A DNA stretch of 33,961 nucleotides from a virus (Duplodnaviria; Heunggongvirae; Uroviricota; Caudoviricetes): positions 1 to 33,961 of IMG/VR virus record IMGVR_UViG_2636415959_000001, one strand, 5' to 3'. A program made the position numbers and the translations under genes. Positions 2,744 to 33,961 of the stretch are shown here, piece by piece. Position 1 is the first letter of the stretch; each line of letters opens with the position of its first letter. The notes below the pieces were generated by a model. The model had not been told where the DNA came from. It worked only from the letters and a program-made list of their open reading frames with translations, and ran no database searches.

Positions 2744-2964
2744 CGTGTCGCCTCTCGTTGAATTGTCTTGTAGGCTCGCAACATATCGCGAGATTTTCCG
2801 GACAAAACCGTCTTCATGAAGAACATTCCACTACGGTTTGCAACTATTCCTGGTGTGCAGAGCAGCGTGGCGTCTACCACGCGGTTATGTTTACGGAACT
2901 CAAACACAGTGCTGGTGATCACGATGTTCGCTACGGCGCCATAGTCCTGATATTCGATTTTCAT
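2740..2964 (-). CDS. Hypothetical early protein (74 aa)
   Basis: Small ORF with 4-nt overlaps to both neighbours. Confidence 0.45.
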   Translation of the reverse strand: MKIEYQDYGAVANIVITSTVFEFRKHNRVVDATLLCTPGIVANRSGMFFMKTVLSGKSRDMLRAYKTIQREATR

Positions 2965-3527
2965 GCCAGATGCTCCTCAATAATTTTGAAAGCATCATCA
3001 CGGCATGGCATCACGACGAACTCAGGATTACCGTATGCAGTGTTGATCACTGGATCGAACTGAATGCGAACCGCTCCAGCCTCACCGGAAGGGCGTAACT
3101 GGATGGGAATAAACTTCCGCTCGCGACCAAACATCTTTTCCGGATAACTGAGGTATTCAGCCCGGATAACCGGATTGATACTGAAATCCACTTTTTTCGG
3201 GATGACGCGTTCCATATCAGGAAAGCGACCATCAACAAGTTTGATGCCGGTGATCGAAATCCGGCGTTCGAATGCGTCGCGGTGAATGGCAAACGCTTCT
3301 TTGTTAAATACCAGTTCAGTGGTTTCCGCTTTCGCCGGAACCGGCCCTTCAAACTGGACGATGATGTTTTTCTTCGTCCGGATGCCGTGCTCCATGCGCA
3401 GGGCTACATGCCCGTTAGTCGACTCGATATATTTCGGAGTGATGTGCACACCATTCAGGTAGTAACGGACATCATTTTTTGCTGCGCATACCAGAGCTGC
3501 GCGAATAAGTTTCGACTGGAGGATCAT
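2961..3527 (-). CDS. Truncated DNA polymerase III beta sliding clamp (DnaN)-like protein
   Basis: 188 aa; motifs ..NDVRYYLNGVHI.., ..KLVDGRFPDMERVIPKK.. and C-terminal ..FVVMPCR.. parallel E. coli DnaN segments (..HQDVRYYLNGMLF.., ..KLVDGRFPDYRRVLPKN.., ..YVVMPMRL) as I recall them; covers roughly clamp domain II and part of III only. Confidence 0.6.
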   Translation of the reverse strand: MILQSKLIRAALVCAAKNDVRYYLNGVHITPKYIESTNGHVALRMEHGIRTKKNIIVQFEGPVPAKAETTELVFNKEAFAIHRDAFERRISITGIKLVDGRFPDMERVIPKKVDFSINPVIRAEYLSYPEKMFGRERKFIPIQLRPSGEAGAVRIQFDPVINTAYGNPEFVVMPCRDDAFKIIEEHLA

Positions 3528-4360
3528 GCTTCCACCTCCACGAAGATCTCTTTCGGATCCTTACGCAGAACGAAGCCACCAAATTCAGGATGTTGCCAGC
3601 GCTTGCGTTTACCGCTTGGGCGAACGGATTCTTCCAGCAGCACCTGAAATGCGTGAATGAACGATTCATGATGTACGCACAGCCCACGAACTCCCGGCAA
3701 CTGTCTGGAGGGCAGGTTTGCGAACTGAACAAGACGACGGCACGAAGGATCGGACAGACTGGTTTCCCATGACACTTTGTGTACCGGAACGAATTCGGCA
3801 TCGGTATTCACGAATTCAGTCGAACTAATGCGCCGTTGTGGTAGAGAGGAAGATACAGGCGAAGCAGCAACCAGGTTGGCGCCACTCACTTCCATTACTG
3901 CTTTCATCGTCGCTGATGCGGTTGCTTCGGCCACAACGCGGGCCAGTGAAAGAATGTCATGGTTCATGCTGATTTCTTGCTGGTGTGATTTAGCTACTGG
4001 CACTTCTTTGCTGTATGTGCCTGTGGTCATGATGGCAGGGAGTACATCCTCACAAACCCAGTCCTGTACGCGTTCAGCCGATGGAAGCTGGCTTCGCAGG
4101 ATAAGGCGGAACAAGTCGGCCTGACCAGCCAGCTGAGTACCGCGCGGTTTTTCACCAAAACCCAATTCTAACGATTCGTTATAATCAAGTTTAATCAACG
4201 CCTTGCAGTGGTCTTTCAGCGCTTTTGCTGGGTTCGTATAACCGAGGGATTTAGCCAGTTCTACAGCGTCAAAGGCTGGTTTTCCCTCATAAAGAATTCC
4301 GCTCATAGAAAAATTGAGTTCTTCTGAGCTAAAGGCCATAAGTTGGTTTTTCATCATCAT
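3524..4360 (-). CDS. BRO-N (KilA-N/Bro N-terminal) domain protein, antirepressor-like
   Basis: 278 aa; N-terminal ..FDAVELAKSLGYTNPAKALKDHC..LFRLILRSQLPSAERVQDWVCEDVLPAI.. fits the BRO-N pattern; C-terminal half unrecognised. Confidence 0.65.
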   Translation of the reverse strand: MMMKNQLMAFSSEELNFSMSGILYEGKPAFDAVELAKSLGYTNPAKALKDHCKALIKLDYNESLELGFGEKPRGTQLAGQADLFRLILRSQLPSAERVQDWVCEDVLPAIMTTGTYSKEVPVAKSHQQEISMNHDILSLARVVAEATASATMKAVMEVSGANLVAASPVSSSLPQRRISSTEFVNTDAEFVPVHKVSWETSLSDPSCRRLVQFANLPSRQLPGVRGLCVHHESFIHAFQVLLEESVRPSGKRKRWQHPEFGGFVLRKDPKEIFVEVEA

Positions 4361-4869: not shown

Positions 4870-4964
4870 CAGTTAATTCCTCCGCTGCATGTTTCTTTTT
4901 CACGTAATCAACAACCTCGCTCAGAAGTTCGTCGATAATTAATTTTCCTGAATCCGTCAGGTAT

Positions 4965-5222
4965 TCAGGTGTGTTTATTAATTTCTATGGCATTTTGATA
5001 TGCGTTTTTGATAGTGGAGTCACCCTCATATCTGCTAAGCCCAACCCCAGTTAATCCTTCAAAACGTAATAAAAGCTGATTCATGAAGTGATCATTTACT
5101 TCTACGGTTTCAATTTTGTTATCTGGAAGTTTTATAATCAGTAGGTTTCCACCGGTATTACGCTTGAGTCGCGCTAATGCCGCATTAGCAATCCGGCGTC
5201 GATAGGTATCGATAATATTCAT
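4965..5222 (-). CDS. Hypothetical small protein (85 aa), AT-rich gene
   Basis: ORF in the AT-rich island next to the repressor; basic N-terminus (..YRRRIANAALARLKRN..). Confidence 0.5.
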   Translation of the reverse strand: MNIIDTYRRRIANAALARLKRNTGGNLLIIKLPDNKIETVEVNDHFMNQLLLRFEGLTGVGLSRYEGDSTIKNAYQNAIEINKHT

Positions 5223-5328: not shown

Positions 5329-5715
5329 TCATACGAAGCGCCTCACAGCTAAAGAAGCGACTACCCGACCATGAATTTTGATATCTTTCAGCTCATCGGT
5401 ATTGAGGGTGAAGGTTTCGTAATGATGGTTGTCCGAAATAATTTTCAATGAACCACAAACTAATGGCTCAACTCTCTTAATAAAAAGGCACGGACGGCCA
5501 AATACATCCATCGTATAAACATAAATGCCAGGGGTTAGCGTGCGGCCACCGCAATCAACGAAAGCCACAACCTCACATGGTTCGATGGTCGGCTGCATTG
5601 AGTCTCCCTCCATCATGCAGCTCTTAACACGGTTACCAAAGTCATTAATGTTGTCAGAGCCGAACAGCATTTGAGGTGTTTTAATTGGCTGATTAATTGC
5701 GATAGCGTTTTGCAT
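5329..5715 (-). CDS. Standalone S24 (LexA/CI/UmuD-type) peptidase-domain protein without HTH
   Basis: 128 aa; GDSMQP serine motif and downstream ..LFIKRVE.. lysine motif parallel the C-terminal domain of the adjacent CI (..GNSMEPVI.. / ..GWKRLKI..); no N-terminal DNA-binding domain; RBS GAGGAA 7 nt upstream. Confidence 0.6.
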   Translation of the reverse strand: MQNAIAINQPIKTPQMLFGSDNINDFGNRVKSCMMEGDSMQPTIEPCEVVAFVDCGGRTLTPGIYVYTMDVFGRPCLFIKRVEPLVCGSLKIISDNHHYETFTLNTDELKDIKIHGRVVASLAVRRFV

Positions 5716-5788
5716 TTTAATTTCCTCAGGGTGAGTTTATCCCCACGCAAAAAGGTGTTATTTATGATTAAATGTGTTAATTAGTTAG

Positions 5789-6082
5789 TTAAATAGCAGA
5801 GAACATTTTTTTAATGTCAGGATGGTCATCTATGATTTTTTTAGCATCATCACATGCTTCTTCATATGACTTGAAGAAATCAACCAGAACAAAATAATTA
5901 TCTACACGTTCGTAGATAGCGAATTCCAAACCATCAATAAAAGTGGTGTTAAATTCGTAATCAAAATCATTCTGATGAGGCTGTGCAGCTCGTAAATAAA
6001 TCCAGTGTGAATTTGCTGCTTTAAGCTTGGCGTGGATATCAAATGCCTGGCTCGCTGGGTTTGGTTGGGAGGTTGTATTCAT
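5789..6082 (-). CDS. Hypothetical protein (97 aa), first gene leftward of the repressor
   Basis: ORF in AT-rich context downstream of the cI terminator and the OL-like palindromes. Confidence 0.5.
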   Translation of the reverse strand: MNTTSQPNPASQAFDIHAKLKAANSHWIYLRAAQPHQNDFDYEFNTTFIDGLEFAIYERVDNYFVLVDFFKSYEEACDDAKKIIDDHPDIKKMFSAI

Positions 6083-6109: not shown

Positions 6110-6160
6110 AATGAGAATACTTAAGTATTAATTGAAGGTCAATGGTATTAATACAAAAAG
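6110..6160. promoter_or_regulatory. Putative left operator/promoter (OL/PL-like) with TAATAC/GTATTA palindromes
   Basis: Perfect palindrome AATACTTAAGTATT (6116-6129) and GTATTAATAC (6145-6154); the same half-site recurs in the cI-cro intergenic region. Confidence 0.4.
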
Positions 6161-6203
6161 AATAATAGATTTCTTATGTATTTGTTATTGAAGATTATTT
6201 TAG

Positions 6204-6244
6204 TAATAAAAAAGCCGACACTATGGTCGGCTTGGTGCTTTTTT
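6204..6244 (-). terminator. Intrinsic terminator downstream of cI
   Basis: Stem GCCGAC / GTCGGC (6214-6219 / 6226-6231), 6-nt loop, followed on the minus strand by a T-run. Confidence 0.55.
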
Positions 6245-6253
6245 GGTAGCGGA

Positions 6254-6946
6254 TCAGAAGATTGTTGATACCCAAAACAGCCTTCCTAAAACCTCAAGAC
6301 TATCCATGTCTACTTCTTCGTCAGGGTATTCATCAGAGTTATAGCTTCTGATTGTCACCTTGTCTGGCCCAGATCTGTAGAGGATTTTTAACCTTTTCCA
6401 TCCACCTTGGTTGATGCCGTAAATTTTACCATCAACGATACGCTTGTCATGGCAGTTTATAGCAACAGTAGAGCCATCAGCGATCACTGGCTCCATGCTA
6501 TTCCCGTGTGCAGCAAAGCATAGAACGCCATCACCATCACTATTAGCTCCCACCTTTCGCAATGTTGCTTTGGAAAACCTAAGTTTTTTGCCATTGTAAT
6601 CATCATTAAGAGCGCTGCCATCTCCACATGCGAACTCGATATCCTTCAAGTAAGGCACCTCTACCTCATCATCCTCAAGCGGCGTTTGCTTATCCCATGG
6701 ATCTATACCAAACATCCTTTGTTCTGGAGTTTTTGCGGGCCCCATGGTGCCTTCACCAGTGCTTAACCATATTGGATCTACATCCAACGCTTTGGCTATA
6801 TCCACGATTTTTCCGCTGGACTGGGCTTTTCCTGAGGTTAGTTTTTGTATGGCCCCCTGGCTTACCCCAACCCTATGCGCTAATTGACTTTGTGTAGCCC
6901 CGGCATGAGCCATCGCCAGCCTTAGTCTTTCTGCAAGTGTGTTCAT
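6254..6946 (-). CDS. cI: CI-like phage repressor (HTH + S24 peptidase)
   Basis: 230 aa; N-terminal HTH (..QSQLAHRVGVSQGAIQKLTSGK..); C-terminal autocleavage domain (GNSMEP, KRLK); divergent from the cro-like gene. Confidence 0.9.
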   Translation of the reverse strand: MNTLAERLRLAMAHAGATQSQLAHRVGVSQGAIQKLTSGKAQSSGKIVDIAKALDVDPIWLSTGEGTMGPAKTPEQRMFGIDPWDKQTPLEDDEVEVPYLKDIEFACGDGSALNDDYNGKKLRFSKATLRKVGANSDGDGVLCFAAHGNSMEPVIADGSTVAINCHDKRIVDGKIYGINQGGWKRLKILYRSGPDKVTIRSYNSDEYPDEEVDMDSLEVLGRLFWVSTIF

Positions 6947-7072
6947 CTAAGTATCTCCGATTTCTGTGCATATTTAATACCACAGGATTAACCATGGCAA
7001 GCGGATAATACTTGATTAATTATTCCTTTGGTATTATTTTATATCTTTAATATTAATACTAAGGGCTTTGTT
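6947..7072. promoter_or_regulatory. Immunity switch region (OR / PRM / PR-like) between cI and cro
   Basis: 126-bp AT-rich divergent intergenic region with repeated TAATAC / GTATTA half-sites (e.g. 6975-6980, 7007-7012, 7032-7036, 7054-7059). Confidence 0.5.
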
Positions 7073-33250: not shown

Positions 33251-33493
33251 TTACTCACTCACTAACCAAAATTCAGCCTCTTCAAACATTTCCTGGACTA
33301 CTGCACTGATCCGTTCCTTCTCGTGCTTGCTGGCGTCAGTGTTGATCGCCGGTAGTGTCATCATCGGTTTAACCCGAACATCAGCGTCAGGGAAAATCCG
33401 GTGAACCCTCTTGGTCAATTCGCCCAGAATGATATCTTTTGCACCGGGAAGACCATCAAAATTCCTTTTGTCATAAACGAGTTCCACGAACAT
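33251..33493 (-). CDS. dinI: DinI-family protein
   Basis: 80 aa; ..FPDADVRV.. and acidic C-terminus ..EEAEFWLVSE parallel E. coli DinI (..DDWFVSE) as recalled; LexA box in its promoter. Confidence 0.8.
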   Translation of the reverse strand: MFVELVYDKRNFDGLPGAKDIILGELTKRVHRIFPDADVRVKPMMTLPAINTDASKHEKERISAVVQEMFEEAEFWLVSE

Positions 33494-33508: not shown

Positions 33509-33528
33509 TGCTGGATGGATATACAGTA
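33509..33528. promoter_or_regulatory. LexA (SOS) box in the divergent dinI-like / umuD'-like promoter region
   Basis: Minus-strand reading TACTGTATATCCATCCAGCA (CTGT-N8-CCAG), very close to the E. coli dinI box as I recall it; lies between -35 TTGCTG and -10 TATACT (plus strand) and directly downstream of -10 TATAAA (minus strand). Confidence 0.6.
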
Positions 33529-33571: not shown

Positions 33572-33961
33572 ATGGGCTTTCCTTCACCTGCTGCAGATTA
33601 TGTTGAAACACGAATCTCCCTCGATCAGCAGTTAATCAGCCAGCCCGCAGCGACTTATTTCATGCGTGCATCGCGTTCACATTTCAGGGAAGGGATAATT
33701 CAGGGGGCGCTGCTTGTTGTTGATGCCTCACTTTCAGCCTGTGATGGCTCGCTGCTGATCTGCGCGATAGACGGAGAATTTAGGATCAAGCGATATCGGA
33801 CACATCCTCAACCCCACCTCGTTAATCTGGAGAACGGGAGAAAGGAGGCGCTGCCAGTAGATGATGGCGGTTACAGTTCTGCACCCGCTGTATTTGGGGT
33901 GCTTACTTACATCATCAATGACGCCAGGAATGCAGAGTTTGATGATTGCCCGGTGATGTGA
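33572..33961 (+). CDS. UmuD'-like protein (S24-family fold, N-terminally pre-truncated, catalytic Ser not conserved)
   Basis: 129 aa from ATG 33572 (RBS GAGAGGG); starts MGFPSPAADYVE.., aligning to E. coli UmuD from Gly25 (..CGFPSPAADYVEQ..); GDSM position reads RSHF; Lys of ..EFRIKR.. retained; stop is the last codon of the window. Confidence 0.75.
   Translation: MGFPSPAADYVETRISLDQQLISQPAATYFMRASRSHFREGIIQGALLVVDASLSACDGSLLICAIDGEFRIKRYRTHPQPHLVNLENGRKEALPVDDGGYSSAPAVFGVLTYIINDARNAEFDDCPVM

Follow-up and report, generated by a model that had tools for sequence, protein, structure and literature searches.

We found that a 128-aa open reading frame (ORF) in the window (the whole stretch of 33,961 nucleotides of prophage DNA analyzed here) is a real, conserved, and functional gene that evolves under strong purifying selection and encodes an S24 peptidase domain on its own (hence, the S24-only gene and protein). 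An S24 domain with intact catalytic residues, and with neither a substrate strand nor a DNA-binding domain, appears to have been selected, fixed in the first transcript made upon induction, and exchanged among at least 10 immunity types. We tentatively propose that the S24/RecA regulatory axis is where the protein acts, in trans; the favored form of this reading is a trans-acting S24 protease (probability, roughly 0.35), and induction is plausibly modulated through the LexA/RecA/CI axis. The features on which the argument draws are collected in Table 1.

Table 1. Features of the window discussed in the text and positions of the variable slot in selected loci
Feature	Coordinates	Strand	Remarks
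Bro-N/Ant-type putative antirepressor	3524-4360	-	In the CI-repressed early-left operon
phrog_1737 gene	4965..5222	-	Directly downstream of the S24-only gene; frameshifted here
S24-only gene, 128 aa	5329..5715	-	S24 peptidase domain with Ser39 and Lys80, without HTH, without cleavage site
Ribosome-binding site GAGGA	5723..5727	-	7 nt 5' of the S24-only ATG; read from sequence
ORF97	5789..6082	-	First gene past the PL-like promoter; conserved protein, variable slot
PL-like sigma-70 promoter, TTGACC-17-TATTCT	6114..6142	-	Predicted from sequence
Operator OL1, TAATACTTAAGTATT on minus strand	6116..6130	.	Overlaps -10 hexamer of the PL-like promoter
Operator OL2, TAATACAAAAAGAAT	6149..6163	.	Immediately upstream of -35 hexamer
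Intrinsic terminator 3' of cI	6203..6233	-	8-bp stem (6233-6212), 5 GC pairs, then T run
cI repressor, 230 aa, XRE HTH + S24	6254..6946	-	Putative cleavage site FAC107/G108DG; Ser150, Lys184
OR region	6975..7036	.	Lies between cI and the cro-like gene; operators at 6975-6989, 7006-7020, and 7022-7036
HumD-family (pre-truncated UmuD'-like) gene	33572..33961	+	Third S24-type domain; outside the early-left module
Slot between PL and the S24-only gene, examples	Window 5789-6082; L002, L010, L017 3503-3940; L014, L015 3436-3940

A conserved gene for a stand-alone S24 domain

A search of 5.8 billion proteins recovered homologs of the S24-only protein in 148 clusters, nearly all of them exactly 128 aa long. 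The length holds steady at 128 to 131 aa in Enterobacter, Citrobacter, Salmonella, E. coli, Kosakonia, and Cronobacter, and the hosts represented in the 148 clusters also include Kluyvera and Lelliottia. Within E. coli the gene is rare, being found in 9 of 5,426 complete genomes. For comparative analysis we assembled 95 loci from phage records, GTDB genomes, and IMG/VR. An earlier note on this DNA, made from the sequence, had recognized a stand-alone S24 domain with the Ser and Lys motifs preserved and had asked whether the dyad might prove unconserved or the ORF a remnant that is frameshifted in relatives. Ser39 (within GDSMQP) and Lys80 (within FIKRVE) turned out to be positionally conserved and invariant, 92 of the 95 loci carry an uninterrupted copy, and pairwise Nei-Gojobori comparisons across ten loci gave dN/dS ratios of 0.04 to 0.2 with dS reaching ~2. 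The note's description of the protein is likewise borne out in that only 38 residues precede Ser39 and no HTH family was recovered from Pfam or NCBIfam, and so is its count of three S24-type domains in the prophage, the other two being those of cI and of the HumD-family gene at the right end. The three disrupted copies comprise a nonsense codon in each of two IMG/VR contigs (L134 and L147) and a frameshift that splits the gene in Escherichia phage CharmingMan (L005, 3995-4389), an isolated plaque-forming phage. Because it is disrupted in this phage, as well as in the two contigs, the S24-only gene is dispensable for lytic growth.

The protein is a full-length match to phrog_6201 (E = 4.4e-38; residues 1 to 127 on positions 3 to 120 of the 121-position profile). 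That family is named "CI-like repressor," and NCBI labels its members "S24 family peptidase" or, sometimes, "helix-turn-helix transcriptional regulator." Since the family has no DNA-binding domain and the names were inherited from full-length repressors, "repressor" and "HTH regulator" are misnomers for phrog_6201, and these database annotations should be corrected. PADLOC defense-system models matched neither the S24-only protein nor the products of its neighbors, and literature searches on HTH-less S24 phage proteins, on phages Fostie and LMessi, and on trans-cleavage returned no paper on the S24-only family.

Catalytic residues, fold, and the missing cleavage site

The Pfam S24 model (PF00717; MEROPS S24) matched residues 29 to 119 with 28.6 bits against a gathering cutoff of 23.3, and no DNA-binding domain was detected. 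The family alignment shows no variation at S39, M40, P42, F78, K80, and R81 and next to none at G37; Ser39, in its G-x-S-M motif, and Lys80 are 41 residues apart, within the S24 norm of ~37 to 45. When full-length phage repressors were aligned with the family, the only invariant columns were G37, S39, M40, Y65, K80, and G116. Every column shared by the self-cleaving relatives, including the dyad, is thus present, and the S24-only protein retains all that they retain. As the members of the family are at least 44% identical to each other, conservation of the dyad is only moderate evidence of catalysis.

Searches against PDB sequences recovered no direct match for the family. An AlphaFold2 model of moderate quality (pLDDT, 73.8), in which residues 1 to 17 are disordered, predicts a LexA-like beta fold; its best structural matches are all S24 domains, and Foldseek aligned it with LexA C-terminal domains (prob 1.0; TM 0.48). 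A profile-profile comparison with hhalign against a joint alignment of UmuD', the C-terminal domains of LexA and lambda CI, and the HumD-like protein of the window was colinear though weak (E = 0.09), with GDSM placed on GDSM and FIKR on FTVKK. In the same weak alignment, Ser39 and Lys80 are colinear with Ser60 and Lys97 of UmuD, and residue 10 falls opposite residue 13 of UmuD'.

A cleavage site would be expected ~35 to 42 residues before the Ser, and a search of residues 1 to 38 for Ala-Gly or Cys-Gly found none; the glycines that do occur in this N-terminal region, G19 and G27, are not constant across the family. Alignments differ in whether they put Met1 at the scissile-bond position or ~15 residues past it. 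With its N terminus at or just after that position, the S24-only protein resembles a ready-made cleaved C-terminal fragment whose active-site cleft would be without a strand of its own. Two candidate relics of a cleavage region were considered and rejected. BLASTP paired the tail PIKTPQMLFGSD with the linker of CI (PAKTPEQRMFGID), but at a place that breaks colinearity with the remainder of the match, and we treat this resemblance as chance. A vestigial site at LFG in the tail, which MAFFT places opposite the SAG site of full-length repressors, was discarded because its Gly varies in the family. We also observed that Cys33 and Cys55 persist down to the most divergent members of the family and that Cys76 and His115 are found in most, all four being absent from the full-length relatives; these residues could bind a metal or have a redox role in the stand-alone family.

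Descent from CI-type repressors

An exhaustive hidden Markov model search of 1.84 billion representatives recovered a tiny core family (P0121, P0123, P0125, and fragments), with the next matches being proteins of 200 to 260 aa that carry the S24 domain at the C terminus. The next-nearest genomic loci all encode HTH+S24 repressors of 211 to 366 aa with canonical A-G-x-G cleavage sites. The NCBIfam models for UmuD (NF007621), HumD (NF051876), and LexA gave no match to the S24-only protein at E ≤ 1; the right-end HumD-family protein scores 218 bits with the HumD model and 88.5 bits with the UmuD model. Given the absence of a UmuD, HumD, or LexA match and the HTH+S24 repressors as nearest relatives, we place the S24-only protein as an offshoot of the COG2932/CI lineage and not of UmuD. 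At the level of sequence homology, these searches establish that the domain descends from the C-terminal domain of COG2932/CI-type repressors, with loss of the HTH and of the Ala/Cys-Gly region. The HumD-like protein of the prophage, which is pre-truncated and has no need of cleavage, reads SRSHF in place of the GDSM of UmuD, and HMMER puts His at the nucleophile position where MAFFT puts a Ser; the apparent contrast between a HumD-like protein that lost its Ser and an S24-only protein that kept it hinges on gap placement and is soft.

A wider class of HTH-less S24 families of 100 to 140 aa was also considered. The case that was traced, P0166 (122 aa; metagenome scaffolds L089 and L090), corresponds to the C-terminal half of an ordinary cI gene broken by a run of N in the scaffold. 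As the sole hit traced was a scaffold-gap artifact, we make no claim for the wider class; short "S24-only" entries in metagenome catalogs can arise in this way.

An early-left operon under CI control

As read from the predicted promoter and operators, the S24-only gene is the second gene of a CI-repressed early-left operon with a PL/OL arrangement. Exactly five copies of the 15-nt operator motif TAATACNWNANKAWT are present in the 34-kb window (0.04 expected), three at OR and two at OL; because the motif was derived from these same sites, its value lies in its absence elsewhere in the window. The cI terminator parts the cI transcript from the operon, the gene order of which is ORF97, the S24-only gene, the phrog_1737 gene, ORF167, the Bro-N/Ant-type putative antirepressor, and a beta-clamp-like ORF. 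The position characteristic of the immunity locus, divergent from cro, is held by cI and not by the S24-only gene. From this layout we infer that the S24-only gene is silent in the lysogen and that its product is made at once upon derepression or infection. No LexA box was found near the gene, the sole credible SOS box in the window being that at 33511-33526. Among the regulatory proteins of the window, the motif [AS][AC]G.G occurs in CI only.

Several observations concern the neighbors themselves. The predicted structure of ORF97 is poor (pLDDT, 61). In the phrog_1737 gene, which spans window positions 4870-5222 when its downstream part is included, ORF85 ends in ...INKHT and the conserved C-terminal helix (EYLTDSGKLIIDELL...) resumes in the +1 frame, a frameshift that stems either from a 1-nt insertion or from faulty sequencing. 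An arginine-rich N terminus of the form TYRRRIxxAALxRxxRKTG is typical of the family. The beta-clamp-like ORF (188 aa; 2961-3527, minus strand) shows a weak but consistent likeness to the beta clamp of DNA polymerase III, in the central domain of the latter (TIGR00663, E = 1.5e-5; PF02767), and PGAP names its E. coli homologs "beta clamp domain-containing protein." Together with the Bro-N/Ant-type gene, the S24-only gene may give the early-left operon two different repressor-antagonizing functions. At the other end of the prophage, a DinI-like gene (33493..33251, minus strand) and the HumD-family gene diverge from the LexA-box-like sequence CTGGATGGATATACAG at 33511-33526 and look like an SOS-regulated moron pair.

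Uncoupling from the neighboring genes

The large ORF upstream of the S24-only gene (221 to 308 aa) contains a G-x-S-M motif in 89 of the 90 loci in which it was identified. Clustering at 60% identity divides these ORFs into 11 groups, ten of which are cI types, lambda-CI-like and COG2932-like ones among them; the eleventh is a single 308-aa ORF that has no G-x-S-M motif. Of the 95 loci, 53 have ORF97 in the slot between PL and the S24-only gene, 37 have a 143-aa XRE/Phage_CI_repr HTH protein (HTH143), and 4 have small ORFs, the remaining locus (L013) being too short to reveal its slot. This third cassette consists of two ORFs of ~72 aa, and the three cassettes are mutually unrelated. HTH143 has a Cys-Gly (NEQCGEF) right behind its HTH, and next to the S24-only gene it looks like one half of a split HTH+S24 repressor. 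The phrog_1737 gene lies downstream in all 95 loci.

The S24-only protein does not follow any of these neighbors in its divergence. The version in phage Fostie, with ORF97 in the slot, is 94% identical to that of the window beside a CI that is only 22% identical. In LMessi, the S24-only protein is 93 to 95% identical beside a CI of 28% identity, with HTH143 replacing ORF97 and a phrog_1737 protein that is 40% identical; overall, ~95% identity of the S24-only protein can go with either 86% or only 40% identity of the phrog_1737 protein. The converse is seen in Aeromonas phage AsXd-1 (L004), where CI is 100%, ORF97 98%, and the S24-only protein 58% identical to their counterparts in the window. 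Its cI-ORF97 segment has 97.7% DNA identity to the window, and the match stops at window position 5711, at the S24-only start codon; this joint is a sharp mosaic boundary between genes. It is an oddity that a phage assigned to Aeromonas has a CI identical to that of an enterobacterial prophage. The S24-only protein and the C-terminal domain of its own CI share a fold and 20 to 29% identity.

The S24-only gene is thus uncoupled from cI in evolution and appears to be self-contained and mobile, a module that works with any of these partners. The proposal of the earlier note that the protein might form a heterodimer with the CI of its own prophage is weakened by the reciprocal mismatches in Fostie and AsXd-1 and by the ten cI clusters found upstream. 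The lack of covariation with the neighbors disfavors both a CI-specific heterodimer and a dedicated substrate encoded next door. Covariation being absent for cI, the slot, and the downstream gene alike, the target is likely to be either conserved in the host (LexA or RecA) or common to all S24 repressors, as is the V-x-(A/C)-G strand, and not one particular phage protein.

Proposed function and its alternatives

We favor a trans-acting S24 protease because the catalytic motif is strictly kept, because the protein has no internal site, and because UmuD offers a precedent for intermolecular cleavage, its S24 domain being able to cut the cleavage-site strand of a partner (PMC9926225 and its references 30 and 31). 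Under this scheme, failure of CI repression would allow the S24-only protein to be made from the early-left operon. It would then cut or bind the V-x-(A/C)-G strand that forms the cleavage site of S24 repressors in general, with the CI of the phage itself, of any immunity type, and possibly the LexA of the host as targets. The removal of CI and/or LexA would lock in lytic development. As CI represses the S24-only gene and the S24-only protein would inactivate CI, positive feedback at the post-translational level would result and commit the cell to lytic growth. A more specific version, which we offer as a minority possibility, is that the protein is a trans S24 protease, independent of RecA, that recognizes the generic V-x-(A/C)-G strand in CI-type repressors and perhaps also in LexA. 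Repressed by CI and destroying CI in turn, it would close a post-translational double-negative loop and would represent a new class of antirepressor, catalytic and portable between immunity types. As a counterpoint, a single enzyme would need to accept the cleavage-site strands of very different CI families, and the natural S24 trans-cleavage that we know of takes place within dimers and not between unrelated proteins. A second function that inactivates CI is also not obviously needed, since the operon already encodes the Bro-N/Ant-type putative antirepressor.

The main rival, possible though on balance rather doubtful, is that the free S24 domain binds in the groove of activated RecA, where it would compete with LexA, UmuD, and lambda CI and so modulate the coprotease or recombination activity of RecA early in lytic growth or infection, with catalysis being nonessential; such a decoy could, for example, damp the SOS response or protect newly made CI. 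The groove elements of activated RecA are bound by the catalytic domain of all S24 proteins (PMC9926225), and a target conserved in the host fits the absence of covariation with phage neighbors. The DinI-like and HumD-like genes indicate that this prophage invests in modulators of RecA and SOS, and phage 434 Hex offers a precedent, as it modulates RecA-stimulated repressor cleavage (PMC3564112). Such binding nevertheless leaves the invariance of Ser39, Lys80, and the whole GDSMxPT motif unexplained. The acidic residues with which UmuD contacts RecA, D91 and E93, correspond in our reading of the sequence to Arg74 and Cys76, but the full-length COG2932 relatives are also without them, so that this difference speaks neither way.

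It is unlikely that the protein is instead a protease dedicated to a phage or host substrate other than a repressor, such as ORF97, HTH143, or the phrog_1737 protein, whose stability or maturation it would govern. The preserved catalytic residues and the missing internal site would suit such an enzyme, as would the unfailing presence of the phrog_1737 gene downstream and the 37 loci in which HTH143 lies immediately upstream in what resembles a split repressor. Against it, the S24-only protein stays ~95% identical whether the slot holds ORF97 or HTH143 and however far the phrog_1737 protein has diverged, and ORF97 has no Ala/Cys-Gly site that could be cut.

We regard as quite improbable the idea of a dominant-negative partner, in which the free domain would pair with the C-terminal domain of its own CI, poison the dimer or oligomer, and lower repression without any catalysis. 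The two do have their fold in common, and a protein produced only when CI repression drops would in this way give positive feedback; however, their sequence identity is low, S24-only proteins that are 94 to 95% identical accompany CIs of 22 to 28% identity whereas an identical CI accompanies one of 58%, and a specific dimer interface cannot hold with all ten cI clusters.

A UmuD'-like accessory role in translesion synthesis or a replication checkpoint, in line with the UmuD-like factor that the earlier note had suggested, is more improbable still. Besides the failure of the UmuD and HumD models on a protein whose relatives are repressors, no Y-family polymerase gene adjoins the S24-only gene, and a scan of the early-left and regulatory ORFs revealed no umuC-like gene. 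Control appears to lie with CI and not with LexA, there being no LexA box upstream, and the prophage already has a HumD. Finally, that the gene is only what decay has left of a full-length repressor gene, devoid of function, as its descent from the repressor lineage and the 3 disrupted copies among 95 might suggest, is effectively refuted by its dN/dS ratio, constant length, own ribosome-binding site, and fixed operon position in 95 loci.

Significance and comparison with known systems

Should repressors, LexA, or RecA indeed be cleaved or sequestered in trans, the S24-only protein would bring a new level into the lysis-lysogeny switch of a group of prophages common in Enterobacteriaceae, and it could link the induction of one prophage with the SOS state or with other prophages resident in the cell. 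The family as such is already cataloged as phrog_6201 and within the S24 family of NCBI. What appears to be new is the combination of a stand-alone domain and a missing cleavage site with conserved catalytic residues, a fixed immediate-early position under CI control, and independence from immunity type.

To our knowledge, S24 domains have been described almost exclusively in two forms, the self-cleaving module joined to a DNA-binding domain, as in LexA and CI, and UmuD. The closest parallel within the former is the C-terminal domain of CI/COG2932 repressors and LexA after RecA-stimulated self-cleavage. In contrast to such a cleavage product, the S24-only protein is encoded by a separate gene and lacks the HTH, the linker, and the Ala/Cys-Gly strand; it also has a 4-residue insertion before the catalytic Lys and the family-wide C33 and C55, and its gene would be transcribed from the CI-repressed early-left promoter and not from the maintenance promoter. 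With UmuD' and the HumD of phage P1, which is said (in work by McLenigan et al. from 1999, as cited in PMC11541004) to be a pre-truncated UmuD' homolog, it shares the form of a stand-alone S24 domain of ~115 to 130 aa without the N-terminal piece that is normally removed, and HumD, too, is phage encoded. Unlike them, it belongs to another clade, has no polymerase partner and no SOS box, and keeps an intact GDSM where the HumD-like protein of the prophage has SRSHF. As for P22/Gifsy Ant, 186 Tum, Bro-N, and 434 Hex, we know of none, whether antirepressor or Hex, that acts catalytically on a repressor. None of them is an S24 domain, and their folds are unrelated to that of the S24-only protein; the analogy is functional only, in that they are small, repressor-controlled phage proteins that alter the fate or cleavage of CI-type repressors.
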